NCBI GenBank assembly: GCA_944389265.1 | Contig: CALXLS010000001.1 | Span: forward strand, 82,359-146,358 | Length of the DNA: 64,000 nucleotides | From: an uncultured Alphaproteobacteria bacterium | GTDB lineage: Bacteria; Pseudomonadota; Alphaproteobacteria; Rs-D84 | Direction: 5' to 3' | Shown here: piece by piece, positions 9,500 through 64,000 of the stretch | Numbering within the stretch: position 1 is the first letter of the stretch | How the letters are laid out: each line of letters begins with the position of its first letter | Notes under the pieces: generated by a model | What the model saw: the letters and a program-made list of their open reading frames with translations, nothing else | Told to the model about the DNA's origin: nothing | Databases searched by the model: none | Program-made: the position numbers and the translations under genes

Positions 9500-10051
9500 A
9501 TGAATAAAAACAACCAGAACAGAATATCCGCTTCCCAGAAAACATTTTCTGCTTATGCAAAATATATAACCGAAGAATTCTTAGAAAAATACGGTGCTTC
9601 TTATGTAACATCAGAAAGCATAAAAAATTCTTGGCGATACAAAACCCCATACAGTAAAGAAATTGAAGATTTTTTAATCTTTAAATCAAAAATGTTTATA
9701 CGATTACTTGATTCACGCGATTCAAATTCTACAAATCCAGAATTTTTAAAGGCATTAATAACTTTAATTGCAGATTATTTATCCGCTTATACGCAAAATA
9801 ATCCAGAAATTACTAACCGTAAAAAAGCAAAAGAACAACTTAATCGCGCACTTTATACCCAATCTGCATATATTCAAAACTTATTGGCCATGCAAGCAGA
9901 AAATCGCACTCGCCGCAATTATAAACAAGCAAAATACGTACGCGAAAACAAAAGAAAGCAGAATAAAACTAAAAATGCACAACGTGAATTTAACAATAAA
10001 AAACAATTAAATTTACAAATTGTAGGTTTAGTTTACATAAAGAACAAATAA
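9500..10051 (+). CDS. Hypothetical Lys/Asn/Arg-rich basic protein
   Basis: ORF with an ATG start after an extremely A+T-rich spacer. The C-terminal half is low-complexity (KQAKYVRENKRKQNKTKNAQREFNNKK). No family recognised. Confidence 0.3.
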   Translation: MNKNNQNRISASQKTFSAYAKYITEEFLEKYGASYVTSESIKNSWRYKTPYSKEIEDFLIFKSKMFIRLLDSRDSNSTNPEFLKALITLIADYLSAYTQNNPEITNRKKAKEQLNRALYTQSAYIQNLLAMQAENRTRRNYKQAKYVRENKRKQNKTKNAQREFNNKKQLNLQIVGLVYIKNK

Positions 10052-10057
10052 AACTGG

Positions 10058-10930
10058 TTATTTCGTAACAGATTTAATTTCTTCATCGGCAGTGAACTGT
10101 GTTCTAAACCATGTTCTCTGCCGTTTTGCATATTGGTTCGTTTTTGTAATCCAATTTTTTATGCAATCTTCTTGCGTTATTTCACCACGCAGGAAAGAAC
10201 ATAATTGCGTTGCACCAATTGCACGACTTTCATCCCAACCAGAATCTATTACTGCTTGCGCTTCTGCAATCGCACCGCCTTCCAACATCTTTGGTATGCG
10301 CGCTGCAATCCGTTTATGCAAAATATCTAATGGCGAATTTATTAATATTTTATGCGGTGTTGGTTCTATCGCCCCACTACGCGGCAAAGACTGCCAATAA
10401 GTTATATGCTTGCCAGTTTCAAAAAAGACTTCTAATGCGCGCGCAACTCGCTGAGAATCTGTCGCTTTAAAATCTGACGGTAATAATTTTCTAGCCGCCT
10501 CTAAGTCTTTTGCAACTAAATCACGCGCCTTATCTCGTGCTTCCTTTGACACCTCTGGCATAGGGGATATACCATTTATAACCGCATTTATATAATACCC
10601 TGTTCCGCCAACAAATATAGGTGTAAGACCCGCTGTCTTGGCTTTGTCATATTCTTTTTTTGCCATGTGCAGATAATCAACAACACTTATCTGCTTATCT
10701 AGCGGTAAAATGGAAAACAATCTATAAGGAACCCCGTCTATTTCATCTGTTATTGGCATACCTGCAAAAGGACTTGCAGAAATATTCTCTATTCCCTTAT
10801 AAATCTGGACACTATCGCAATTTATAATAATACCATTTACTAACTTTGCTAAATTATGTGCAAAGTCCGACTTCCCAGATGCAGTAGGCCCAGCAATAAT
10901 ATAAGAATCATATTTTTTCATTAGGCTCAT
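10058..10930 (-). CDS. miaA: tRNA dimethylallyltransferase
   Basis: IIAGPTASGKSDFAHNLA (P-loop), …NCDSVQIYKG…, and the C-terminal YAKRQRTWF. The true start is MSLMKKYDSY; the long N-terminal extension in the listed ORF is spurious. Confidence 0.85.
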   Translation of the reverse strand: MSLMKKYDSYIIAGPTASGKSDFAHNLAKLVNGIIINCDSVQIYKGIENISASPFAGMPITDEIDGVPYRLFSILPLDKQISVVDYLHMAKKEYDKAKTAGLTPIFVGGTGYYINAVINGISPMPEVSKEARDKARDLVAKDLEAARKLLPSDFKATDSQRVARALEVFFETGKHITYWQSLPRSGAIEPTPHKILINSPLDILHKRIAARIPKMLEGGAIAEAQAVIDSGWDESRAIGATQLCSFLRGEITQEDCIKNWITKTNQYAKRQRTWFRTQFTADEEIKSVTK

Positions 10931-11051
10931 TATAAAATACAAAGATGAAAAATCAAGCGTAGCACCCAACAAACAAAAAATAATTGCACAATTTGTGCAT
11001 GGTGCTAAAATAACCCCGTCCAATAAAAAGATAAAACGAAAGGAAAATAAT

Positions 11052-13028: not shown

Positions 13029-15590
13029 TTAACTTACTTCTTGTTTCTCTTCCGTTAATTTTATTGTTTCTTCCATACTATGAAAGTTCTTGCTTATATC
13101 TATGTTCGCTTTCCCTACTAACTCATCTTCTTCATTAAACACTTCTATTATATATTTTCCATGTTTAATTCCGTCAAATATAAATGCGCCGTCCTTATCT
13201 GCAACTTTTGTCGCAACCGTTTCGCCTTCTGTATTCTTGATATATATTGTGTATTTCTGACCCTCAACCATATTTTCTAGTTGTCCTTCTAATCCCCCAA
13301 GGTGATTAAACTTTATTACTATATGGCGCATTGCACCTGGACGTAAAACCAATTTCTTTTCCGTCCATTCTGGTACCAATGCTAAATCTTCTACCTCATT
13401 TCCATCTACACTTAATATCGCTTTTTGATGAGAATCTAGGTTAGTTATTATCGCTTCACCATCTTCATCTGTAACCGACGGACTTTCACGACCGTTTACT
13501 ATTATCTTTACACCTTTTACAGGATTACCATGGTCATCTTCAGCATGTGCAAATATAGTACCGTAATTCATCATTTGATTTTCTGAGTTTGTAAATAACT
13601 CCATACTATTCGGTTTCTTACCCAAACTTATATTATATGTTAACCCTAGTGCAAGGTTCCTATTCGTATCAGCCGACACATTAAATGTTATTCCACCAAA
13701 CTTAAATAATCTGCCAAGCCCAACACCAAAAACATCTATGTCCGAATTACCTGTATAATTAGACTGACAATCATGATTCCATGTTGCCTGAACATAAGTA
13801 TTTTTATCCCAACGATATTCTAAAAAACTACCATAACTATTCAAATAAGTATCAGGGTTTGTTTGATAACGCGCCTGCCCGTTTACACGAAAGCGCATAT
13901 AGTTTGCTTGTAATAGAAAATCTATATAATTCTGTGTAAAGCCCGCATTACGAGTCCAATTATTTTCTATTGTAAAATTATAATAACGCATAAAATTCGG
14001 TGATAATCTGGCCTGAACAGTTTGGTAACTTTCACCATTCTGTCCATTACTACCTGTATAAGAAATATAATAAGGAACATTTATAAAAGGCAAACTTCCT
14101 GTTAAACGCGTTTCGAATAAATCTTTTAAATATCCGTCTTGATAGTATGAAATTGGCGATGATATATCACCATAATATTCATACCTTGTAAAGATAGTTC
14201 CTATATAAATATCACCTTGTAAATCTACGTGATGACCGACCGCATTTTTACTAAGGTTATAATTCATATTATATTGCAAAGACACACCATTCAAAGCAAG
14301 TTGCGCACCCAATGTAGAATATTGATAATCAGACCCTATATCATTTATATTTTCTGCAGTTGCAAAACCACCGTTCAATGTAAAGTAATCTGTCACCCCG
14401 TAATAAAACATAGAATTAGCAGAAATCTTATCCGAAGAACTTTGCAGTCCTTCTTTTCCCTCAAAAATATATCTGTTTGGTTGTTGCGCACTTATATTAT
14501 ACCCTAACTCGCCTGCACTGACTGGTGATGTACCAGAATAATACCGGCGTTCTTCTTCACGAACTTCACCGAATGGTCCATATAAGACAACCTTAAAGTT
14601 ATTTAGTCCATAATTTACAGGTATATTTAAAAACTCGTATCTACCGTCAATGCTTGATTGTCGAAATCCTATTAACTGATTGTTAAGGTATAATTCTGCT
14701 TCCCAGCCCGCTGGCATACTGCCTGTAATATCGATAGTCTTATCTGCAGAAACAACTAAATCTTTAAAAGAACTAAATAAAACACCGCGCCCATTAACAC
14801 CATTAAAGAACAAATTGTTTCCGTCACTAACAATATCACCTGCTTTAAATCTTGCTAAATTTAATGCGTTTCTAGGTTCATCTAATAAAGTCTTGCTGAC
14901 AGACACCCTGGCACCAGGATCCCATAATTCTGAATTACCATAGTCATCCCCGAATATAGTTACCTGGGTATCAAACCCAGCAAAAATCATACCTAGATTT
15001 GCTTGATAATAATCACCGTATGAATGACTATAATCGTCTTTATGTATATGGTTAAAGTTCTGTGTTCTTTTATAAATAAAGTCCATTACAGGAAAAGAAA
15101 AATAACGTTTATCAAACTCATAATTACTAAATGGGTCCGCCTGTGAACTATAAGACATATTTTGTCGCCTGACAAAATTCTGTGCAGACCTGGCCGTAGG
15201 TAAAACTTTTTCAGATTCTACCTCTAATACGGTTTCTAATAAATTTACTTTTAACTTTATTGGTAATACCCTTTCATATAAATCTAATGAAAAAAAATCT
15301 TTACCATCATAATCTATGAAAGTTTCTTCGGAAAAATCCGCAGAATTTAAAGAAAAACTTTCATCTAAAAAACTGCCTGTATTGTCATTTGGATTAAAGT
15401 TAAACCTTAAGGCTTCCGCCATATCTTGCATATCAAAGAAAAAAATATCCTCTTGTTGCACAGCATGAACAATAACCCCTGTGTTTATTCCCTGAACAAT
15501 CGGTTCTAATAGCAACTGATTAGCATAAGTCAAATCAGAATAAACAAGACAAGATATAACGCTATATAAGCTTAGTTTCCAGCACTTCAT
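13029..15590 (-). CDS. Fimbrial usher (outer-membrane pilus-assembly platform)
   Basis: 853 aa with a signal peptide. Usher-typical length and beta-rich composition. Position directly downstream of a PapD-like chaperone and SCPU subunits; the assignment is by context plus composition. Confidence 0.7.
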   Translation of the reverse strand: MKCWKLSLYSVISCLVYSDLTYANQLLLEPIVQGINTGVIVHAVQQEDIFFFDMQDMAEALRFNFNPNDNTGSFLDESFSLNSADFSEETFIDYDGKDFFSLDLYERVLPIKLKVNLLETVLEVESEKVLPTARSAQNFVRRQNMSYSSQADPFSNYEFDKRYFSFPVMDFIYKRTQNFNHIHKDDYSHSYGDYYQANLGMIFAGFDTQVTIFGDDYGNSELWDPGARVSVSKTLLDEPRNALNLARFKAGDIVSDGNNLFFNGVNGRGVLFSSFKDLVVSADKTIDITGSMPAGWEAELYLNNQLIGFRQSSIDGRYEFLNIPVNYGLNNFKVVLYGPFGEVREEERRYYSGTSPVSAGELGYNISAQQPNRYIFEGKEGLQSSSDKISANSMFYYGVTDYFTLNGGFATAENINDIGSDYQYSTLGAQLALNGVSLQYNMNYNLSKNAVGHHVDLQGDIYIGTIFTRYEYYGDISSPISYYQDGYLKDLFETRLTGSLPFINVPYYISYTGSNGQNGESYQTVQARLSPNFMRYYNFTIENNWTRNAGFTQNYIDFLLQANYMRFRVNGQARYQTNPDTYLNSYGSFLEYRWDKNTYVQATWNHDCQSNYTGNSDIDVFGVGLGRLFKFGGITFNVSADTNRNLALGLTYNISLGKKPNSMELFTNSENQMMNYGTIFAHAEDDHGNPVKGVKIIVNGRESPSVTDEDGEAIITNLDSHQKAILSVDGNEVEDLALVPEWTEKKLVLRPGAMRHIVIKFNHLGGLEGQLENMVEGQKYTIYIKNTEGETVATKVADKDGAFIFDGIKHGKYIIEVFNEEDELVGKANIDISKNFHSMEETIKLTEEKQEVS

Positions 15591-37090: not shown

Positions 37091-37759
37091 TTAGAAAGAA
37101 TAACGTAATCCTAACTTTACTTCATGCGCATATACAAATTCCCCTTCTACATCAGAAGAATTAAAGCGATATGCTATATCTGCAGCCCAACTTTCTGTAA
37201 AATTATATGCTGTACCAATAGCTACCTGCCATTCAAATTCTTTCTTCTTATCATCCGCACCAACAATATGTCTATTTCCAATCATCGGAATTGAGGAAGT
37301 AATATCAACCGTTGCGTACTGATTATAAGTACCTAAACCAATACCAGCACCAACATAAGGCGTCCAATTAGAATTTTCTAAATCAAAATCATAATACAAA
37401 TTAAATAAATAAGAATTATGCTTTACAGATGTTGATGTGTTAATTGTCATCATCGCATTTGATACCAATTCATATTTATCTTCAGATGCACTGCGCAAAG
37501 CATATTCTAATTCTGCACGAATATTTCCATATTTAATACCTGCAGTAAATTCACCAGCGATAGCAGAATCAAAATCCATATCGCCACCACCATTTTTTAC
37601 AATCATCTCTGCAGAATTTGGGTCATACCCCATGCGCTTTGCAGAAGTGCCGGCCTTATCAACAACAACACCCAGACCAACATACGGTGTTAAATCCGCA
37701 GCGAATGCACCTGTTGCAAAAACTGAAACCATTGTAAAAATAGGTAAAATCTTTTTCAT
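37091..37759 (-). CDS. Small outer-membrane beta-barrel protein (Omp25/Omp31-like / OmpA-like barrel)
   Basis: Signal peptide MKKILPIFTMVSVFATGAFA; 222 aa; C-terminal …LGLRYSF. Confidence 0.55.
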   Translation of the reverse strand: MKKILPIFTMVSVFATGAFAADLTPYVGLGVVVDKAGTSAKRMGYDPNSAEMIVKNGGGDMDFDSAIAGEFTAGIKYGNIRAELEYALRSASEDKYELVSNAMMTINTSTSVKHNSYLFNLYYDFDLENSNWTPYVGAGIGLGTYNQYATVDITSSIPMIGNRHIVGADDKKKEFEWQVAIGTAYNFTESWAADIAYRFNSSDVEGEFVYAHEVKLGLRYSF

Positions 37760-37889: not shown

Positions 37890-38654
37890 ATGAAAATTCA
37901 AAATGAAATAGAACAATCTAATAAATATATGTTGGAAACATTTAATTTTATGGGCAAAGAACTTGTACAAATATTACCTGAGAATGTTTATAAAATTGAA
38001 GCAATGATAAAAAATGATTCTGCATATATAAAAACATTTGATAAAAATGCGGCTCCAAATAAAAAGAATTTCAACGGCTCTACTGCATATTGGATGTCTA
38101 AATTATTAAACCTTATGCAAGATGCAAAGATAAAAAACACAGACCAAGAATATAGAAATATAATCGAAAAGGTCGTAATATCTATTGACTCAGAAAATTC
38201 CACGCATTTAAATGCGGACGGGGTTGGGCGAAGGGAAATCTCGGCCAGAATATCTGCAATAGAAAAAAATAGACTTCTAAATCTTTTAAAATATCCACGT
38301 GAAAATAATTTTGAACTTATAAGGATTATATCTGAAAAAACTCATCCTGAAAACAACCAAAAGAAAGCACGAGCAAACCTTTCTTTTGCAAGTAAATTTT
38401 GTCACTATGCATGTTTTTTCTTATTTGAGGGGACAGAATTTCAAGATAACTTTTCAATTCATGATAATGTGCTTAAGAATGCTTTAGTTTACTATGCTGA
38501 TTATTATGGAATTAAATTAGAAAAAGACACTTTAACAACTTATGCCAAATACAGCCAACTTATAGACTTAATAATTGAAAAGAATGGAAACTTAATTAGC
38601 AGGAATGGATTTGACCACCTATTATGGTATTATTTTAAAGCAAGAGCCTATTAA
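37890..38654 (+). CDS. Hypothetical protein (255 aa), A+T-rich gene
   Basis: ORF with an ATG at 37890 (the track starts at an upstream TTG). No motif recognised. A+T-richer than the core genes. Confidence 0.35.
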   Translation: MKIQNEIEQSNKYMLETFNFMGKELVQILPENVYKIEAMIKNDSAYIKTFDKNAAPNKKNFNGSTAYWMSKLLNLMQDAKIKNTDQEYRNIIEKVVISIDSENSTHLNADGVGRREISARISAIEKNRLLNLLKYPRENNFELIRIISEKTHPENNQKKARANLSFASKFCHYACFFLFEGTEFQDNFSIHDNVLKNALVYYADYYGIKLEKDTLTTYAKYSQLIDLIIEKNGNLISRNGFDHLLWYYFKARAY

Positions 38655-38680
38655 AAATGGCACTTAATGTGCCATTTTTA
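38655..38680. terminator. Bidirectional terminator
   Basis: AATGGCAC-TTAA-TGTGCCATT followed by TTTT. Confidence 0.45.
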
Positions 38681-40003
38681 GTTATTCTTTAAATCTTCAA
38701 ATGCCTTGGTCATTGTCGGATTATTCTTGGTCAGTTTTTTTATCGTCAAATCTTGCGCCTTGTTATTCGCCAAACGCAAATTGGTTTCAGAACTCAACAA
38801 TGCTTCTTTGGTCTTTTGCAAATGATCTATGGTTTTATCTATTTCATCTATCGCCTTTTTAAACCGTTCACTGGCACGCATATAATTCTGACCGAACTTT
38901 TCTTTAAACTCATTCATTTCTTTTTCAAAATTAGAAACATCAATATTCGCCTGTTTATATTCCGCAATCTGTTGCTTATATTTAACAGAATTCAATGCCG
39001 CATCTCGCAATAATGTTATTATCGGAATAAAGCACTGCGGACGCACAACATACATTTTCTTATATTTGTATGAAACGTCAACTATACCAGCATTGTACAA
39101 TTCATTATCTTGTTCCAGTAAAGAAACTAAAACCGCATATTCACAATTCTTTTCATTACGGTCTTTGTCCAATTCTTTGAAAAAGTCCTCGTTTTTATGC
39201 TTGCTTGCCGTTGTATCCATTTCGTTTTTCATTTCAAACATTATGGATATAAACTCCGTCCCGTCTTCGGCATAATCACGAAATATAAAATCCCCCTTAC
39301 TGCCAGTTTTTGCATCATTATCTTTTTCAAAGCGTGCCTTTGAAAACGCGGTTGCACGCAACTTATTAAATTCTATACTGCAATGCTGTTCCAATGTTTC
39401 ACCTACCATCTTGGTAGACATTCTTGTTTTTAAATCTTTGTATAAAGCTATTTCTGCATCTTTGGTTTTTAACTGTGCATCATAGTCGCTTTTTAACTTT
39501 TGTTGTGCTAATTCGTTGTCCTTTTCTTTGTCTTTTACATCGTTTTGCAACTGCGCAATAAGTTTTTCTTTTTCAAACAGTTCTTCCTTGGATTTGTTAA
39601 CTGCGTCTTTAACGGCAATTTCTTTGTCCTTTTCACTGGCTTCAACACGAGCCTTAAATGCTTCTATTTGTTTTGTTAACTCTGCAATTTCTTTGTCTTT
39701 ATTATTCTGAACCGTTGCAATTTGCAATTTGATTTCTGTGTCTTTGCTTTTATTTGCGGCATCTATTTTAGACTTTAATTCGGCAATTTCCTGATTTAAC
39801 TGTGCAACTGTCTTTTCTTTTTCTTGCTCTGCTTTTGATTCAGCAAGTTTTATTTCCGTCTGCTTTTCTTTTTCGAATTGTGCCAAACGTTCGTGCAAGT
39901 CTTTATGAAACTGCTCGTCACGAACCTGGGCAACAATCGCAGAATACCCAGATTCATCAACTGTAAAAACCGTACCGCACTTTGGACATTTTATTTCTGA
40001 CAT
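38678..40003 (-). CDS. DUF2130-family protein: N-terminal zinc ribbon, long coiled coil and a C-terminal nuclease-like globular domain
   Basis: [23 protein letters not shown] (CxxC zinc ribbon); about 200 aa of EKEK-rich heptads; C-terminal …[25 protein letters not shown]…, characteristic of the DUF2130 architecture. Confidence 0.5.
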
Positions 40004-40166
40004 ATCTATACCTCTATAGTAATGTTTATTTTCTTAGAAAATAACAATAACAGATTTAAATACAATAAAAATATTTTTACTTTTTTATTTTCTGCATACC
40101 CGCAAATTTTTCATATTGTGTTTTTTACTGTTTATGATAATTTGTTTTTTAACAAGAGGTTATTAT

Positions 40167-40706
40167 ATGGCATTGGATACAGATACTTTTGACTCGTTAA
40201 AAAAAGAATATCAATTTAAGTCTGGGACCGAAAATTGGCATCCGGTAATTATAGACGGCAAAGAAATTTCTGATGCTTATGTCGGCATAAGTGGGACAGT
40301 TATTTATACCCCCGGAAAACAAATATTGCCAGGAACCAAACTGACCGATAACGAATATTCAAAATATGCCTTGCCTACAAAATTAAATACTTCTTGTCTA
40401 TTAGAGATTGTATTAAACGGACAAACTTTACCAGTTCATCGTATTGTTGCAGAAACTTTTTTGGAATTGTGCTTTATCTACACACCTGAAGAAATACTAA
40501 AAAAACCAGAAAGAGCCAAAAGCAACTTGGAAGAACTTTTAAAAAACAACACTCAAAAAGGTTGGGTTATTCATCATAAAGATAACAACGCAAATAATAA
40601 TAGCGTACCTAATTTAGTATGGCTAACCGAAGAAGATCACACAAAAACTCATCCTAATAAAACTTTTCTTATAAAAAATAAAAAACTATGTAAATCACAT
40701 ATATAA
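40167..40706 (+). CDS. HNH homing-endonuclease-like protein (NUMOD4-like N-terminus plus HNH_3-type C-terminus)
   Basis: AAGAGG SD. N-terminal ENWHPVIIDG…YVGISGTVIY (NUMOD4-like). C-terminal VIHHKDNNANNNSVPNLVWLTEEDHTKTH (HNH His/Asn signature). Confidence 0.55.
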   Translation: MALDTDTFDSLKKEYQFKSGTENWHPVIIDGKEISDAYVGISGTVIYTPGKQILPGTKLTDNEYSKYALPTKLNTSCLLEIVLNGQTLPVHRIVAETFLELCFIYTPEEILKKPERAKSNLEELLKNNTQKGWVIHHKDNNANNNSVPNLVWLTEEDHTKTHPNKTFLIKNKKLCKSHI

Positions 40707-40811
40707 TGAAAAGATTTAATCCGTATACGACAAAATTGGTCGCATCTATAAATCCCAACTTTACAAGAAAGTATTAATTTATAAAATCTTTATTGTAAAA
40801 GAGGTATTTAT

Positions 40812-41600
40812 ATGAATCAGCGGTCAAAAATGCAACCATATTCATTAAGTAAAATTCTTCAAAATTCAGATTTTGTATCACCTGAATATAAACTACCAAT
40901 AATTATAGGGAAAGATATATCTGATAAAATTGTCTATTATGATTTAAATAAATTATCAAGGATATTAATAGCAGGTCGTGAAAAAACAGGAAAAACAAAT
41001 TTAATAAAATTAATTATCTCATCTCTAATTGCGGGAAATACTGCTAATCAGTGTAAACTTGCGATAATAAATTCAAACAACGATGATTACGAAGAATTTA
41101 AAAATATTCCTCATCTTTTTTGTCCCATTGTTAAATCCGGAGCCGAAGAATCTAAAAATGTTCTAGAACTACTGATAACAGAACTAAATAATAGACGCAT
41201 AAAAATTCGTCAGCACAATGTAAAAAATATATCTGAATATAACAAAATACCTTCTGAAAAAATACCTTACTTAGTTATAATAATCGATGATTTTTCTGAT
41301 TTATATACAACACTTCCCCAAAAATTTGAGAATTTTATACAACAAATATCTACTTTTGGGTGCAGTGTCGGAATTCATATAATTATATCTACCAAGCACA
41401 TAACCGAACAAAATTGCACAGATTTTATTAGTGCAAGTTTTACAACACATATAGCGTTTAAAACAAGTACAGCACAAGAATCCGAACTGATAACCTGGAC
41501 CCCAGAAGCGGCAAATCTACAAGAACAACACGATATCTTATTAATCGAAACTGCTAAACCCGCTATACATATAAAAACAAACCTTTTCATTGAAAGCTAA
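40812..41600 (+). CDS. Stand-alone FtsK/SpoIIIE-type motor-domain ATPase (262 aa; no membrane or gamma domains)
   Basis: AAGAGG SD. Collinear with the FtsK alpha/beta core: Walker A ILIAGREKTGKTN, …NIPHLF…, Walker B PYLVIIIDDFSDL, …SVGIHIIISTKHIT…. Confidence 0.55.
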   Translation: MNQRSKMQPYSLSKILQNSDFVSPEYKLPIIIGKDISDKIVYYDLNKLSRILIAGREKTGKTNLIKLIISSLIAGNTANQCKLAIINSNNDDYEEFKNIPHLFCPIVKSGAEESKNVLELLITELNNRRIKIRQHNVKNISEYNKIPSEKIPYLVIIIDDFSDLYTTLPQKFENFIQQISTFGCSVGIHIIISTKHITEQNCTDFISASFTTHIAFKTSTAQESELITWTPEAANLQEQHDILLIETAKPAIHIKTNLFIES

Positions 41601-41653
41601 ACAAATATAAAAGGTTATAATCTATATGGTTATGCTATGGCCATTTTTGTATT

Positions 41654-41989
41654 TTATTTTTGCTCTAGATAATTAACTTTTTTACCTGTTTTTATGGCAT
41701 ATTCTATTTCGGATTTAGTTGCTTCACCAATATACCCACCAACATTTATAACAAAAATTTCATCCGCCATATCTATTTTTCTTTTATGCATATCGCCCAA
41801 CATTTTTATTTTTTCATGAACTGTATCTTCATCCATACCTTCCCAAATACATTCATTACCAGATTGATTAAAAAACAAAGGTGAAAGAACTATATTACCC
41901 GCCAAAGACAACAGGTTTTGCACACGTTTAAAATCATCTTTAAATTTTGAAGAACCACATAATGTTATAACTTTATATTTGCCCTGCAT
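41654..41989 (-). CDS. Small Rossmann-like protein resembling nucleoside 2-deoxyribosyltransferase-like families (DUF1937/DUF4406 type)
   Basis: KVITLCGSSKF … DEIFVINVGGYIGEATKSEIEYAIKTGKKV: an NDT-like arrangement in which a Glu follows the Gly-rich strand. Pattern-level only. Confidence 0.3.
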   Translation of the reverse strand: MQGKYKVITLCGSSKFKDDFKRVQNLLSLAGNIVLSPLFFNQSGNECIWEGMDEDTVHEKIKMLGDMHKRKIDMADEIFVINVGGYIGEATKSEIEYAIKTGKKVNYLEQK

Positions 41990-42096
41990 TTATTCGCCTT
42001 TTCTGTAAGTGCCTATCAGTATAAAAAAATATAAATATAATAACAACAGGAAATGAGCATTTCGGGGTGTTTCTTTTTCTGGTGGAACATAAATGC

Positions 42097-42591
42097 TTAA
42101 TTATTAAATAAGTTAAATTCTTGGTGTCTGCGGTTACTTAAACCTGGCATTTCCCTGCCACCAGATTTATTCCATGCTTTCCAAGCAGATTCTAATGTTG
42201 GGTATTTTGAGTTATGATAATTTGAATCATTTACGTATTTTACAACGGTAGAACCAGCGAAGTTTTTTGCACCTATGTTATATGCCAAAGATACCAGTGC
42301 GTCATATTGATTTTGAGATAGCGGGACAGTTATATTATCTTTAACTGCCTGTTCTGCCGTTGATATATCCAAGCGCAATATTTCGGTCGCTTGTCTTTCT
42401 GTGATACCATTTTTAAAATCTTCGCCCGACTTTATTAAATGACCATAACCAATTGTTGCGCCCTTGGGTAATTCTTCGTCTAATTTTACAGGTCTTCCTG
42501 TTTTATCATCGTAAATAACATGCATGTCACCGATTTTAACACTACCTTCAAATCGTTTTAACATCTTTATACCATTATCGCTGATTTTCAT
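42097..42591 (-). CDS. Phage-type lysozyme (glycoside hydrolase family 24)
   Basis: From the internal ATG: MKISDNGIKMLKRFEG(catalytic E)…YDD…TIGYGH…ITERQATEIL…LSQNQYDALVSLAYNIG…GL.NRR, the T4/P22-lysozyme signature. The 47-codon N-terminal extension in the track is not credible. Confidence 0.75.
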   Translation of the reverse strand: MKISDNGIKMLKRFEGSVKIGDMHVIYDDKTGRPVKLDEELPKGATIGYGHLIKSGEDFKNGITERQATEILRLDISTAEQAVKDNITVPLSQNQYDALVSLAYNIGAKNFAGSTVVKYVNDSNYHNSKYPTLESAWKAWNKSGGREMPGLSNRRHQEFNLFNN

Positions 42592-42757
42592 ATTATTGAC
42601 CTTATTTTCATGAATAAAAAATCCCGCGATTGCGGGATAAAAAAATACGGCATCTGCCGTCCTATATTTCGTATGCGAATTATACCATAAAACACGAAAA
42701 AAATCAACACAGAAAAAAAATAAACCCCACAAAATTCTTGTGGGGTTTATTTATTCC

Positions 42758-42771
42758 TGGCGGATGGGGAG
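42758..42771. repeat. 14-bp direct repeat of the tRNA-Ser 3' end (att-like)
   Basis: TGGCGGATGGGGAG at 42758-42771 is identical to the 3' terminus of the tRNA-Ser gene at 42930-42943. The sequences diverge immediately afterwards. Confidence 0.5.
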
Positions 42772-42929
42772 TATTCCCTCGCCCGCTGATAGCGGGTCTG
42801 TGGGGCATTCATGACGTTTCGCCCGCACGTTGTTTGGCTCAACTACTCATTGTCGACCCCTGGGGTTCTCATCCGACCACAGACACATAAAAATAAAAAA
42901 TACCCCTGTTGGGGTGTTTTTTATTTTTA

Positions 42930-43019
42930 TGGCGGATGGGGAGGGATTCGAACCCCCGGTGGAGTTGCCCCCACAACGGTTTTCAAGACCGCCGCATTCG
43001 ACCGCTCTGCCACCCATCC
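42930..43019 (-). tRNA. tRNA-Ser (anticodon TGA), type II
   Basis: Reverse complement GGATGGGTGGCAGAGCGGTCGAATGCGGCGGTCTTGAAAACCGTTGTGGGGGCAACTCCACCGGGGGTTCGAATCCCTCCCCATCCGCCA: anticodon loop CTTGAAA, long variable arm, encoded CCA. Confidence 0.85.
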
Positions 43020-43112: not shown

Positions 43113-43913
43113 TTATATCTTCTTCCTTATCGAATATAAAAATAAACCCAATCCACATGCAAACATTATTCCAGACAATAACTGCCCCATCGTTAAACCC
43201 CAACTTGTCAAAAATCCTATCTGAATATCCGGTGCGCGAAACTGCTCGCACCCTATTCTGAACACTGCATACAACATACCAAGAATTCCACCCAGTGCAC
43301 CTGGATACTTACGCAACTTTGTATACTTATACAAACAATACATTATTATAAATAACAAAATACCTTCGGTTACAGCCTCGTACAAAGGACTTGGGTGGCG
43401 CGGAATTTCACCATACCCATTAAACACTACCCCCCATGGCATATCTGTCGGACGCCCCATTACTTCCATATTTATAAAGTTTGCTATCCTTCCAAAAAAC
43501 AAACCTATCGGTGCAATAACTGCTAAAACATCTAATATTCTTAAAGCGTTCTGGTTCTCTTTCTTGGCAAATAATAAAGTCGCAATTATTACCCCTATTA
43601 GCCCACCATGGAAACTCATTCCTCCGTGCCATACCGCAAATATCTCTAATGGATGCGCAATAAAAAATGATAAGTTATAAAATAGTACATACCCCAGACG
43701 ACCACCTAATATAACACCCAAAATTATATAAGTTAACAAATCATCTATTTGCTTTTTGGATAACGTCACATTTTCGTCTTTGCCCGTCATAAAATAACGA
43801 AATGCAAAATACCCAATAACAAATGCCGCAATATATGCCAACGCATACCAACGTATGTCTAAACCAAAAACGCTAAATGCAACAGGTGATATAGGTTCTA
43901 TATTTATAGCCAT
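43113..43913 (-). CDS. lgt: Prolipoprotein diacylglyceryl transferase
   Basis: Polytopic membrane protein with Lgt motifs (…FGLDIRWYALAYI…, HGGMSFHGGLIG, GRIANFINMEV…). Confidence 0.8.
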   Translation of the reverse strand: MAINIEPISPVAFSVFGLDIRWYALAYIAAFVIGYFAFRYFMTGKDENVTLSKKQIDDLLTYIILGVILGGRLGYVLFYNLSFFIAHPLEIFAVWHGGMSFHGGLIGVIIATLLFAKKENQNALRILDVLAVIAPIGLFFGRIANFINMEVMGRPTDMPWGVVFNGYGEIPRHPSPLYEAVTEGILLFIIMYCLYKYTKLRKYPGALGGILGMLYAVFRIGCEQFRAPDIQIGFLTSWGLTMGQLLSGIMFACGLGLFLYSIRKKI

Positions 43914-55844: not shown

Positions 55845-56432
55845 ATGTTTTCTTTAAATCAATTTCCTTTGCCATTTCCCGCAAAAGGCATGGAACCCTA
55901 TATGTCTGAACAAACTATTAATTTCCACCACGGTAAGCATTTGGATACATATATAAAAAATTTAAACGAATTATCCCAAGGCACAAAATATGCAGATTTA
56001 CCTTTAAATGAAATTATCATTAAATCTGCAAAAGATGAATCTGCAAAAAAAATATTTAATAATGCTGCACAAGTATTTAATCATAATTTCTTTTTTAACT
56101 GCTTATCAAAAGAAAAAATATCTATGCCAGAAGAAATAATAATTTCATTTGGTAGTGCAGATAATTTTTTTGAACAATTTAAATCTGTTGCAGTTTCTGT
56201 ATTTGGCAGTGGTTGGGCTTGGCTTATTCGCGATACAAATAATGAACTAAAAATTATAAGCACCGCAAATGCAGATACACCAATTGCACATAATTTAAAA
56301 CCTATTATGACAATCGATTTATGGGAGCATGCTTATTACCTAGATTACCAAAATCGCCGCCCAGATTTTATAGACGCTATACTTAAAAATTTAATTAATT
56401 GGGATTTTATAAAAGAAAATTTAGAAAAATAA
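55845..56432 (+). CDS. sodB: Fe/Mn superoxide dismutase
   Basis: AAAAGGAG SD. FPLPFPAKGMEPYMSEQTINFHHGKHLDTYIKNLN…, and the C-terminal DLWEHAYYLDYQNRRPDF (metal-ligand H/D/H). Confidence 0.85.
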   Translation: MFSLNQFPLPFPAKGMEPYMSEQTINFHHGKHLDTYIKNLNELSQGTKYADLPLNEIIIKSAKDESAKKIFNNAAQVFNHNFFFNCLSKEKISMPEEIIISFGSADNFFEQFKSVAVSVFGSGWAWLIRDTNNELKIISTANADTPIAHNLKPIMTIDLWEHAYYLDYQNRRPDFIDAILKNLINWDFIKENLEK

Positions 56433-56458
56433 AAAGCGGGAAAATCCCGCTTTTTTAA
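56433..56458. terminator. Bidirectional terminator
   Basis: AAAAAGCGGG-AAAA-TCCCGCTTTTTT. Confidence 0.5.
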
Positions 56459-57837
56459 TATCTATCATAAATAACAGGTGTTTTATTTATTGTGTAAATT
56501 CTGCCGTCATTTTCTACGTTATAATAAATATATAACACATTTGCTATATCACCTTCTTTCCATGGATTATGACCACCTATTACTTGACGCTGTGTATTAT
56601 AAGGGAAGACCGTATGAAATGTATTATCAAAGACTTTTGTGTACTGATCTTTAAAACTAGTGCTGACTATCATATTCATAATTATTATACCATTTGGGGC
56701 TATTCTTGTCTTTATACGTTCCATAAATTCAGCAGTAATTAAACCTTCTGGTATCTGATACGAATTAGAATATACGTCTAATAAAATTAAATCATACTTT
56801 TCATCAACATTTTTTAAATACTGACTTGCGTCTTGAACAATAAACTTTTTGTTATCCGACAATTTCTGCTTTAAAAAATGCTTTTCTGAAACATCTTTTA
56901 ATGTATGTTCTATATCAACAAAAGTATAATCATTAAAAGTATCCCTTAAACCTGCAGTAAAACCACCCGCACCCAAAACTAAAATTTTATACCTCTTATC
57001 ACGCGGCATTCTATAAATAAAATTATTATTTATATAATTTATGTACTCTGCCATATAACCGTGCTTCTCATCATAAACTGACATGGGCAACCCATTCATA
57101 TCTAAAATTCTTAAAGAACCAAATTCAGAAACAGAAATAGTAGAGTTTGCATTGTTTACTAATATTCCATACTTTTTACGTTGAACCTCAGAACTATTAA
57201 CTACCAAAGTTGGTATTAATATTAAAGCACAAATTAAAAACACCCACCATTTTCTGTAAGTAAATACCGCTGCAAATAAAGCCAAACATACTACCAACAT
57301 AACTGTATAATTTACACCTATGAAAGGCATTAATATCAATGTGGTTAACAAAGATCCCATAACAGAACCGATTGTATCCCATGCCATTATACTGCCGGTA
57401 TAATTCGTATTGTACTTATGCAACCATCGTGATAATAAGGTGGTATTAAAACCAAATAAAAATGGACCAATAGACAAAAATACTAATGAATAAATAAAAG
57501 TTTGAATAACACTAGATGTTATACCGTTGGCATATAACCATTTAAAATATTCCGATACTAATGGAAAACTAGACGCGGCAAAGGCAATAAATGAAATAAC
57601 GATAAAGCTTGCACATAAAATTCTTCTTATGTTTGAAGTCTTTATTTTTTCAGAAGAACCTAAAAAATACCCCAAAGACATAAAACCTAAAAATATCCCC
57701 ATTATTATACTGGTTATTACTGCACTGGAACCAACATAAAAAGACAACTGCCGTAAAATAACTAATTCTAAAGATAAACTTACATAACCATTTAAGAATA
57801 TTAAAAAAACTAACCACATGTGCAATTTACGCGTCAT
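56455..57837 (-). CDS. Membrane-anchored spermidine-synthase-like protein (polyamine aminopropyltransferase fold fused to an N-terminal polytopic domain)
   Basis: GAGGAG SD. Six or more TM helices, then YKILVLGAGGFTAGLRD…DLILLDVYS, the spermidine synthase/methyltransferase-fold motif. Confidence 0.55.
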   Translation of the reverse strand: MTRKLHMWLVFLIFLNGYVSLSLELVILRQLSFYVGSSAVITSIIMGIFLGFMSLGYFLGSSEKIKTSNIRRILCASFIVISFIAFAASSFPLVSEYFKWLYANGITSSVIQTFIYSLVFLSIGPFLFGFNTTLLSRWLHKYNTNYTGSIMAWDTIGSVMGSLLTTLILMPFIGVNYTVMLVVCLALFAAVFTYRKWWVFLICALILIPTLVVNSSEVQRKKYGILVNNANSTISVSEFGSLRILDMNGLPMSVYDEKHGYMAEYINYINNNFIYRMPRDKRYKILVLGAGGFTAGLRDTFNDYTFVDIEHTLKDVSEKHFLKQKLSDNKKFIVQDASQYLKNVDEKYDLILLDVYSNSYQIPEGLITAEFMERIKTRIAPNGIIIMNMIVSTSFKDQYTKVFDNTFHTVFPYNTQRQVIGGHNPWKEGDIANVLYIYYNVENDGRIYTINKTPVIYDRY

Positions 57838-63074: not shown

Positions 63075-64000
63075 ATGCAATCTTTTAAAGTTTGTTTTTG
63101 TATTCCTAATATGGTCATAGGTGGTGTCGAATCTGTTTTTATACAGACTCTTGACGATATTTCAAAAAAACAAAATGCTGACATCACAGTAGTAATGCAC
63201 ACACCTCTGCAAGAACAATTTTTTATAGATTGGTTTAACAAGCATCCTCATATCAAATTATATACCATATATCCAATGGGACCAAAATTTGAAAAACTGC
63301 ATAAATATATGCACTTTTTTCCTTTATCAAACATAAGAAAAATTATTTATAGCATATATAAAAAACTAAAAAACCATGCGGCAATTCACAGCGGTTTATT
63401 TTCCAACTGTGACATAATTATTGACTATAAAAACTGCGCTTTTTTTAAATTAATGAAACTTTTACCAAATAAAAAAATTACTTGGATTCATGGTTCTATA
63501 AATTATTTTAACGAAAATAATCTTATAGAAAGAATTAATACATATGACAAAATAGTATGTATTACAAAAAGTTTTCTAAATGATTTTGCTGCGCAATACC
63601 CAAAGTACAAAAATAAAATAATACAAATATATAATCCCATAAATTATAAAGCAATAAAAGAAACTGCTAAAAAATTGTCTTCTTTACCTGAAAAATATTT
63701 TTGCACTGTATCAAGACTCGACTCAGATAAAGATATAAATACCATAATCAAAGCATTTAATATTTTTTGGCAATCTGAAAATAAACCCGAAGTAAAACTT
63801 ATAATAGTCGGTAATGGTGGACAAGCAGAAGAACTTAAAAAGTACGCTGCCACCTTAGATTGTCATGACAATATTATTTTTACAGGTTCTGTACCTGTAC
63901 CTTTTGGATATATGCGCGGTGCAATCGCACATATTTTATCCAGCAAAAATGAGGGACTGGGTATGGTGCTTTTAGAAAGTGCAGCATGCGAGACATTAAA
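63075..64000 (+). CDS. Glycosyltransferase family 4 (GT-B), 5' part; the gene continues beyond the window end
   Basis: ATG at 63075. VCFCIPNMVIGGVESVF (GT4 N-terminal Gly-rich motif) … SRLDSDKDINTII…LIIVGNGGQAEELK…FTGSVP…LSSKNEGLGMVLLESAAC (EX7E region). No stop before the window end. Confidence 0.6.
   Translation, partial: MQSFKVCFCIPNMVIGGVESVFIQTLDDISKKQNADITVVMHTPLQEQFFIDWFNKHPHIKLYTIYPMGPKFEKLHKYMHFFPLSNIRKIIYSIYKKLKNHAAIHSGLFSNCDIIIDYKNCAFFKLMKLLPNKKITWIHGSINYFNENNLIERINTYDKIVCITKSFLNDFAAQYPKYKNKIIQIYNPINYKAIKETAKKLSSLPEKYFCTVSRLDSDKDINTIIKAFNIFWQSENKPEVKLIIVGNGGQAEELKKYAATLDCHDNIIFTGSVPVPFGYMRGAIAHILSSKNEGLGMVLLESAACETL

Follow-up and report, generated by a model that had tools for sequence, protein, structure and literature searches.

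The 64-kb window analysed here, one stretch of genomic DNA from an uncultured alphaproteobacterium, carries six open reading frames (ORFs) between a tRNA-Ser(TGA) gene and the gene for an outer-membrane beta-barrel protein (OMP; Table 1). Together these ORFs fill positions 37890–42591 and encode a GH24 lysozyme, a small protein of uncertain family, a stand-alone FtsK-like ATPase, an HNH endonuclease, a DUF2130 protein and an orphan. A first-pass annotation, which had listed the same six ORFs from the letters alone, took them for the A+T-rich remnant of a decayed prophage or satellite, inserted at the tRNA 3′ end and bounded by a 14-bp repeat of that end. We find that the repeat is produced by a tRNA-trailing element alone, a non-coding unit with an architecture like that of the Escherichia coli RtT repeats, and that the stretch from 37.9 to 43.0 kb is probably a mosaic built up in a rearrangement-prone slot and not one integrated element. 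The window belongs to Candidatus Enterousia, a genus that has been assigned to the order Rs-D84, with fermentative members and genomes of 0.75–1.0 Mb (PMC12306168), and exact copies of window proteins are found in human-gut metagenome assemblies. The window was compared with the best 80 loci that could be anchored on Lgt in the species genomes of GTDB, almost all from uncultured Alphaproteobacteria or Candidatus Enterousia, and with 54 metagenome contigs that carry the trailing element (L198–L251; strict core-pattern search); loci are cited by L numbers throughout.

Table 1 Features of the interval between lgt and the OMP gene, in positions of the 64-kb window (aa, amino acids)
Feature	Position	Strand	Evidence and remarks
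lgt, tRNA-side backbone flank	43113–43913	−	Pfam LGT; anchor for 80 related loci
tRNA-Ser(TGA)	42930–43019	−	ARAGORN; Rfam tRNA 57.7 bits; repeat derives from its last 20 nt
Terminator-like hairpin, first part of the repeat unit	42886–42929	−	Inverted repeat I3, 21-nt arms, 95% complementary; directly after the tRNA
Structured core of the tRNA-trailing element, RtT-like architecture	42752–42885	−	118 bits with covariance model R1, 92 bits with R2
tRNA 3′-end copy closing the element	42758–42777	−	14/14 nt exact, 16/20 identical to the tRNA end; contains the second 14-mer (42758–42771)
Second terminator-like hairpin	42718–42752	−	16-pair stem, then a T run; between the element and the lysozyme gene
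GH24 (T4/P22-type) lysozyme, 164 aa	42097–42591	−	Pfam PF00959 7e-32; PHROG endolysin 2e-36
Alpha/beta protein of uncertain family, 111 aa	41654–41989	−	Sub-threshold DUF4406 match; exchangeable within the accessory block
Stand-alone FtsK/SpoIIIE RecA-like (beta) domain, 262 aa	40812–41600	+	Pfam PF01580 6e-25; PDB FtsK motor 2IUU 2e-23
HNH_3 endonuclease, 179 aa	40167–40706	+	Pfam 1e-06; PHROG HNH families; PADLOC 'homing endonuclease'
DUF2130 protein, 441 aa	38678–40003	−	Pfam PF09903 2e-89; CxxC N-terminus, coiled coil, PD-(D/E)XK-class C-terminus
Orphan, 254 aa	37890–38654	+	No family in Pfam, PHROGs, PADLOC or NCBIfam
OMP gene, far-side backbone flank	37091–37759	−	Pfam OMP_b-brl 3e-16

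Both the tRNA and its repeat are genuine. ARAGORN places tRNA-Ser(TGA) on the minus strand exactly where it had been annotated, and the 90-nt gene is identical in a species whose Lgt protein is only 74% identical. The 14-mer that ends it, TGGCGGATGGGGAG, occurs exactly at 42758–42771 and 42930–42943 and nowhere else in the 64 kb, even with two mismatches allowed (chance expectation in the window, 0.12). What fails is its role as a boundary of the island. The second copy falls between the tRNA, from whose end it is 172 bp away, and the lysozyme gene, and the two 14-mers enclose a 158-bp non-coding stretch, not the 5-kb island; because the second copy sits on the tRNA side of the genes, the repeat does not bound them. 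At the far end of the island (37.7–37.9 kb) we found no copy of the tRNA 3′ end, not even a degenerate one with many mismatches, and no other direct repeat. Within the enclosed stretch the hairpin next to the tRNA contains a match of the terminator scan (42915–42902), and its position is kept in relatives with compensating changes. The second terminator-like hairpin also abuts the 3′ end of tRNA-Ser(GGA) in L100 and that of tRNA-Ser(TGA) in L020.

The unit made up of the 158 bp and the second 14-mer belongs to a family. It is conserved at 73–82% identity after tRNA-Ser(TGA) in other species, where it occurs as tandem triplets in L031 (12457–12996, period 171) and L038 (11084–11540); the window holds one copy, whose core is the only strong match of covariance models R1 and R2 in the 64 kb. 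Across the 80 species loci, R1, which was built from ten copies, scores 80 bits or more in 10 and detects 7 weaker copies, all of them 3′ of tRNA-Ser(TGA) and on its strand. The metagenome contigs add 63 copies in 54 loci, 60–260 nt from the tRNA and behind at least 16 tRNA species: Ser(TGA, GGA, CGA), Arg(TCT, CCG, ACG, CCT), Val(CAC, TAC), Gln(TTG, CTG), Pro(GGG, CGG, TGG) and Lys(TTT, CTT). Every copy closes with the 3′ end of the tRNA that it follows. Exactly 20 nt are shared in 15 non-redundant cases, which cover nine tRNA species; at the junction ...CGAGG is followed by GA(A/G/T)TCC..., corresponding to G57 of the T loop, and the identity runs from there to CCA. Ten more copies keep 14–15 nt of the tRNA end, as does the copy in the window. 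Over 61 distinct sequences, in an alignment that was fitted to the model and so favours structure, 96.3% of cells are paired versus 30–51% in slid controls, and 15 of the 19 pairs change on both sides. Given these slid controls and an independent RNAalifold result, we take the structure of the element to be real.

The same duplication geometry can be read in another way, with the trailing element and its 14-mer as the fossil end of an integrative element (an attP arm plus attR) and not as a functional RNA. The duplicated block spans the segment from the T loop to the tRNA end, which Williams reportedly described in 2002 as a classical sublocation of integrase crossover. It also often reaches into the downstream terminator: in many copies the 12 nt after the CCA of the unit equal the 12 nt after the CCA of the tRNA. 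Copies are present in one species and absent from another at the same tRNA, and they form tandem arrays. Against this stands the distribution of the core, which is one conserved sequence behind 16 tRNA species, each with its own tRNA end, and for which a single attP therefore cannot account. The helices covary strongly, no integrase lies nearby, and a strict search for the core pattern returned no copy in 2.9 million viral contigs (IMG/VR). We regard the fossil attachment site as unlikely.

In E. coli, tyrT and tyrV carry distal 178-bp repeats, each of which ends in the last 19 nt of tRNA-Tyr, and maturation of the RtT RNA (rttR) by the tRNA 3′-end machinery has been proposed. To our knowledge the origin and function of these repeats have been without explanation since the 1970s–90s, and we know of RtT-type repeats from only one E. 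coli locus. The trailing elements share their architecture. Both lie directly 3′ of a tRNA gene on the same strand, and in both the unit closes with the last 19–20 nt of the tRNA, joined at a position within the T loop (A58 in E. coli, G57 here). A pseudo-T-loop, GGTTCGAC, is common to both, as is an upstream motif, GGATGAGAA, and the order in E. coli of GGATGAGAA, pseudo-T-loop, TTGCC-GCAG and tRNA tail from A58 is also the order in the trailing family. The period is 171–172 bp here compared with 178 bp in E. coli, and the tandem triplets of L031 and L038 compare with 3.14 copies at the E. coli locus. The two differ in that a terminator hairpin stands between tRNA and unit here, in that the trailing family follows at least 16 tRNA species and not one, and in that it has no tpr-like ORF.

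Searches for homology between the two gave little. RtT (RF00391) is the top Rfam family for copies of two species, with full-length alignments at 17.6 bits (L057) and 18.7 bits (three copies in L031); no copy reaches the gathering score of 45, and the copy in the window has no RtT match. In the other direction, two covariance models built from the trailing family do not detect the E. coli repeats, and a shuffle-controlled pairwise alignment of the core with E. coli RtT is not significant. Homology of the trailing family to E. coli RtT is thus unsupported by the models or the alignment, and we therefore class the two as the same kind of element by architecture and do not assign the trailing family to RF00391. 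Other identities for the unit were also rejected. A transfer-messenger RNA (tmRNA), whether whole or as the acceptor fragment of a two-piece form, was found by neither ARAGORN nor Rfam, and a G3:U70 pair is lacking. As a tRNA-like RNA built on the acceptor stem of its tRNA the unit also fails, its 5′ strand matching the first 7 nt of the tRNA at only 4–6 of 7 positions in the various tRNAs, near chance. Nor does the closing helix (P1) follow tRNA identity: pairing with the own tRNA averages 5.5 versus 4.7 with other tRNAs, a difference that is not significant.

We tentatively propose, with a little less than even confidence, that these copies form a ~130-nt family that is absent from Rfam at threshold and of which we have seen no description, that stands behind at least 16 tRNAs with 20 nt of the own tRNA end, and of which E. 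coli RtT would be a lone diverged example. Such a family could be either a miniature mobile element aimed at tRNA T loops or a general class of tRNA-operon RNA. The element would arise through some process of T-loop recognition, or it would be a transcript matured by the tRNA 3′-end machinery.

A further tRNA-linked arrangement occurs on the other side of the gene. Many relatives have a partial second tRNA-Ser ~130 bp upstream of the intact one, consisting of the leader and the first 36 nt and broken in the anticodon loop (L034 10858–11010, L016 2344–2540; also L020, L021, L025, L031, L036, L045, L047 and others). It is lacking from the window, where the equivalent place is 43054–42984. The partial copy is joined to a conserved ~95-nt segment (CATACGAGTCAGC...GAACGAGTGGTGAGCAGC...), and the two together may be a mirror-image tRNA-linked element.

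The genes of the island occupy a slot in an otherwise collinear backbone, which in relatives runs AMP-binding, nrdD, nrdG, (OMP), slot, tRNA-Ser(TGA), lgt and BI-1. A comparison of synteny uncovered an empty site: in L034 the order is lgt, tRNA-Ser, OMP, nrdG and nrdD, and the OMP gene lies ~50 bp from the tRNA with only a terminator hairpin between them. Elsewhere the slot contains valS (L023, L030, L060), metK with a GNAT gene (L066, L085), Tlde1/PG-binding proteins (L020, L052), a GH108–MuF lysin (L079), HNH_5 (L032), GIY-YIG (L087), an FtsK–ankyrin protein (L025), and LD-carboxypeptidase or glycosyltransferases. Insertion, deletion and replacement all contribute to turnover of the slot, and the segment in the window is lineage-specific; as had been thought, it holds genes of mobile type. 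A scan of the six island proteins and of 20 proteins from the slots of relatives found no integrase or recombinase. ORFs of ~340–460 aa that adjoin the tRNA in relatives, considered as candidate integrases, encode Tlde1-domain/PG-binding, GIY-YIG, GH108, HNH_5, MetK, LD-carboxypeptidase and glycosyltransferase proteins. From the varied contents and the lack of a recombinase we conclude that the slot is a site of rearrangement and gene turnover in general and not a landing pad dedicated to one element.

One apparent case of an empty site within the species was discarded. L013 matches the window at 99.99% identity as far as the tRNA, beyond which valS follows; it is most likely an assembly chimera, because all 90 nt of its tRNA, through which the join runs, are shared with the co-occurring L060 species and its tail is 99.5% identical to L060. 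Many other metagenome contigs also end in or at tRNA-Ser(TGA) (L014, L015, L017–L019, L002, as well as L013), because the 90-nt tRNA is identical between Enterousia species and acts as an inter-species assembly repeat.

The suggestion that the tRNA-Ser 3′ end serves as a recombination site holds for the genus; in the window itself the genes of the island are not flanked by the repeat. L079 has a 2.1-kb lysin cassette between two exact 30-nt direct copies of the tRNA-Ser 3′ end (10902–10931 and 13070–13099); the cassette consists of a GH108/PG_binding_3/Mu-F-like protein and a 178-aa ORF and has no integrase. In the L020/L192 species a ~3.9-kb insert, which spans Tlde1 to DUF488, separates the tRNA from the trailing unit and has left TCCGCCA at the junction.

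These cases bear directly on the proposal that all of the block descends from a single decayed prophage or satellite, inserted at the tRNA-Ser 3′ end by an integrase since lost. Direct repeats of a tRNA end flanking a cassette, and an insert exactly at the tRNA end, speak for it; the block in the window likewise adjoins the tRNA in a variable slot and includes two genes of phage type, the GH24 lysin and the HNH endonuclease. Its base composition may in part be deviant. Measured against the per-gene GC of the 64 kb (mean 0.361, standard deviation 0.037), four genes are A+T-rich at z = −1.3 to −1.9 (orphan, 0.29; HNH, 0.31; FtsK-like, 0.29; 111-aa protein, 0.30). The claim of A+T-richness does not extend to the DUF2130 and lysozyme genes (both 0.35), and genes just as A+T-rich lie elsewhere in the window at 9500–10051, 55845–57837 and 63075–64000 (GC 0.29–0.30). 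The block resembles integrase-mediated islands at tRNA 3′ ends in its place beside a tRNA, its absence from some relatives, its mobile-type cargo and, perhaps, part of its composition, in a genus that has genuine direct repeats of the tRNA end. It differs from them in having no integrase, in a repeat that encloses only 158 bp, and in a cargo that includes conserved host genes (in relatives even valS and metK). As had been noted, integrase, capsid and tail genes are lacking; we found no terminase either, in the window island or in the sister lineages. The HNH and FtsK-like proteins have no close relatives in IMG/VR, and the DUF2130 protein has no match in INPHARED (50,697 phage records). With no repeat at the far end, and with DUF2130 and the lysozyme behaving as conserved host genes, an origin of the block as a single prophage or satellite is improbable, and a mosaic remains our preferred account.

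The lysozyme illustrates why. Its assignment to the T4/P22 type stands, the PF00959 match covering profile positions 18–125 of 125. The protein is 86–95% identical in L022, L031, L047, L100, L192, L194 and L197; the gene lies 3′ of tRNA-Ser(TGA) in L022, L031 and L047 and adjoins tRNA-Ser(GGA) in L100. In L022, L031, L047 and L100 the lysozymes are 86–90% identical to that of the window, compared with 73–86% for Lgt where measurable, and the best phage relatives in IMG/VR are at most 51% identical. The best NCBIfam matches are the Bartonella gene-transfer-agent endolysin BgtA (90 bits; cut-off 315) and SpmX. With these domesticated alphaproteobacterial GH24 proteins it shares the fold and its nature as a conserved chromosomal gene; it scores far below both curated cut-offs and has no SpmX-type extension. 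From these identities we infer a domesticated host gene under strong constraint. Upstream of it (42592–42707, minus strand) lie a promoter-like TTGATT-17-TGnTATAAT and then two terminator-like hairpins (42660–42647 and 42638–42621) before the lysozyme start, a layout also kept in L100 and one that may be an antitermination-controlled leader. More widely, enzymes that target peptidoglycan (Tlde1 L,D-transpeptidase-like, GH108 and GH24) are frequent in the slot and on related contigs, together with small neighbouring ORFs and DUF488, as in L020 (11057–13853) with L192 (1–1185), L052 and L194. These sets are reminiscent of effector/immunity sets and are odd for genomes of ~1 Mb.

A second component is the A+T-rich pair of HNH and FtsK-like genes with the 111-aa gene beside it. 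Of the NUMOD4+HNH architecture proposed for the first, HNH_3 is supported (PF13392, 28 bits against a cut-off of 24.8) and NUMOD4 is not: it gave no match in a scan to E = 1, in which the HMMER filters make the reach roughly E ~0.1. The FtsK/SpoIIIE motor domain was correctly recognised, and the protein aligns to residues 176–310 of Pseudomonas aeruginosa FtsK (2IUU), with which it shares the RecA-like beta domain and Walker A. Its Walker motifs had been called intact. This is true of Walker A (GREKTGKT); in Walker B (IIIDDF) the usual catalytic Glu is Asp, as it also is in two relatives (P0002 and P0003). The 262-aa protein further differs from P. aeruginosa FtsK in reading TKH in place of the TQR motif and in lacking an alpha domain, a gamma (KOPS-binding) domain and a membrane segment, since it starts at the beta domain and ends ~35 aa after it. 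Ribosome-binding sites of AGAGG type precede the HNH and FtsK-like genes, bearing out the strong Shine–Dalgarno sequences that had been claimed. For the 111-aa protein the label 'NDT-like' was not confirmed, its sole basis being a DUF4406 match at E = 0.011 (16.5 bits against a cut-off of 22); the best fold match of a low-confidence single-sequence AF2 model (pLDDT 58) has E = 0.05.

The pair does recur elsewhere. L100 has an HNH gene next to an FtsK-like gene on one strand (57% and 51% amino-acid identity), and L194 has the two in convergent orientation (60% and 33%), in both cases near the lysozyme gene. Almost no relatives of the two proteins exist outside the genus: the FtsK-like protein has 23,514 superfamily matches and only three close relatives, and the pair is found in about four lineages, all of one genus. 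The third gene is exchangeable, a 322-aa weakly HEPN-like gene taking its position in sister strains (L197 9514–10482). That gene is split into two frameshifted halves in L192 (2168–3136), and the HNH gene is frameshifted in strain L197 (8001–8541). A stand-alone FtsK-like protein in L101 (326–4826), 37% identical and also with DD in Walker B, lies beside a nucleotidyltransferase/HEPN pair and a 546-aa protein in a defence-like neighbourhood without HNH.

One reading of this block is a compact anti-phage module, in which HNH, the FtsK-like ATPase and an exchangeable third gene (DUF4406-like or HEPN-like) would act together in a slot resembling a defence island. The pair recurs at 33–60% identity, once in changed orientation, and its third gene has been swapped for the weakly HEPN-like one. 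In PADLOC-DB 2.0 the FtsK-like domain matches the ATPase regions of the SspH (1e-24) and mad8 (5e-18) models. Slots of relatives hold HNH_5 and GIY-YIG nucleases, and in L101 a toxin–antitoxin pair stands beside the 37% FtsK-like homologue. These PADLOC matches, like those to 'homing endonuclease' and, weakly, to LmuB, remain at the level of domains: no full system is matched, in keeping with the earlier statement that no named defence system could be recognised. The confinement of the pair to so few lineages of one genus, the frameshifted HNH gene in one strain and a Walker B without its catalytic Glu also weigh against the reading, and we give a dedicated defence module only a minor chance.

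A second reading joins the pair to the lysozyme as the remains of a packaging and lysis module of a phage or gene-transfer-agent-like particle. In HK97-like phages the packaging ATPases have HNH proteins as partners, and membrane-containing phages use FtsK/HerA-type ATPases to package their DNA. The window likewise has an HNH gene beside an ATPase of DNA-motor type, in an adjacency kept across divergence; the three genes co-occur in L100, L194, L192 and L197, and the best NCBIfam match of the lysozyme is BgtA. That match falls far under its cut-off, the ATPase is of FtsK type and not a terminase, and no small terminase, capsid, portal or tail gene lies nearby. All FtsK-like matches in phages are below 30% identity, and the lysozyme is far more conserved than the HNH and FtsK-like proteins. 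We consider a packaging remnant quite improbable. Selfish or defence-type cargo, patchily distributed and decaying in places, would be the role of the block of HNH, FtsK-like and third genes.

DUF2130 and the orphan are the remaining two genes. The match of the DUF2130 protein to PF09903 covers profile positions 2–255 of 255, confirming its assignment to a family that is counted among the PD-(D/E)XK families (PMC3424549). Many Enterousia have orthologues with 88% amino-acid identity, whose neighbours are in every case aspS, RNase J and alaS and in no case the orphan; a 260-aa gene that adjoins DUF2130 in relatives was considered as a homologue of the orphan and is not homologous. The orphan had been listed at 255 aa. 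It is present at 254 aa and matched no family in any of the four protein libraries scanned. In L192, L196 and L197 it is 99.6% identical, compared with 88–93% for the neighbouring OMP and 94–99% for DUF2130, and on these figures its conservation is unusually strong for a protein without a known family.

Taken as a mosaic, the stretch from 37.9 to 43.0 kb would consist of four pieces. The first is the ~172-bp trailing element, with its terminator hairpin, ~130-nt structured core and decayed 20-nt copy of the tRNA end. The second would be the GH24 lysozyme, a domesticated host gene held at the site across several species, and the third the A+T-rich block of HNH, FtsK-like and exchangeable third genes, patchy and in some strains decaying. 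DUF2130, a conserved gene of the genus that would have been moved in by rearrangement, and the orphan make up the fourth. Turnover would proceed partly through recombination at copies of the tRNA 3′ end, of which the 30-nt repeat in L079 is a clean example, and the islet genes are predicted to be expressed as separate units with hairpin terminators between them.

Several observations weigh against this account. The sister lineages L192, L196 and L197 share the islet (lysozyme, FtsK-like, HNH, DUF2130, orphan and OMP) at 94–97% nucleotide identity, with local swaps and with two extra genes between OMP and nrdG relative to the window. Their backbone is ~92% identical, slightly below the 95–97% nucleotide identity of the islet between sister lineages, so that the block could have been transferred recently as a unit. 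A copy of DUF2130 in L188 (1–21473; 94% amino-acid and 89% nucleotide identity) lies beside prophage-like genes, so that a mobile origin of DUF2130 may also be considered. Because the comparisons are between species and between metagenome-assembled genomes, gain here and loss elsewhere are not polarised by a tree, and the functions proposed for the lysozyme and for the HNH/FtsK-like block are inferences. The prophage-like genes in L188 encode a serine recombinase, DUF2924, a terminase, a ParB–methyltransferase and an S24 repressor; on the other side of DUF2130 are genes of restriction–modification or helicase type, for an SMC-like 722-aa protein, an N6_N4 methyltransferase, ResIII and DEAD.

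The island itself is ordinary, a mosaic accessory islet in a hot spot; its repeat is real and was misattributed, and the trailing element is the interesting part. A short tRNA-end repeat beside accessory genes is insufficient for calling an integrated element, and a call based on the repeat would have filed DUF2130 and the lysozyme, conserved host genes, as prophage debris. The HNH and FtsK-like genes stand as a candidate two-gene module. With dozens of diverged copies, covariation and a fixed junction in the T loop, the trailing family gives comparative leverage on repeats of the RtT type. Should the elements prove mobile, some process of recognition of the universal T loop would be implied; as RNAs they would represent a new class of tRNA-linked transcript in genomes of ~1 Mb, in which non-coding DNA is scarce.

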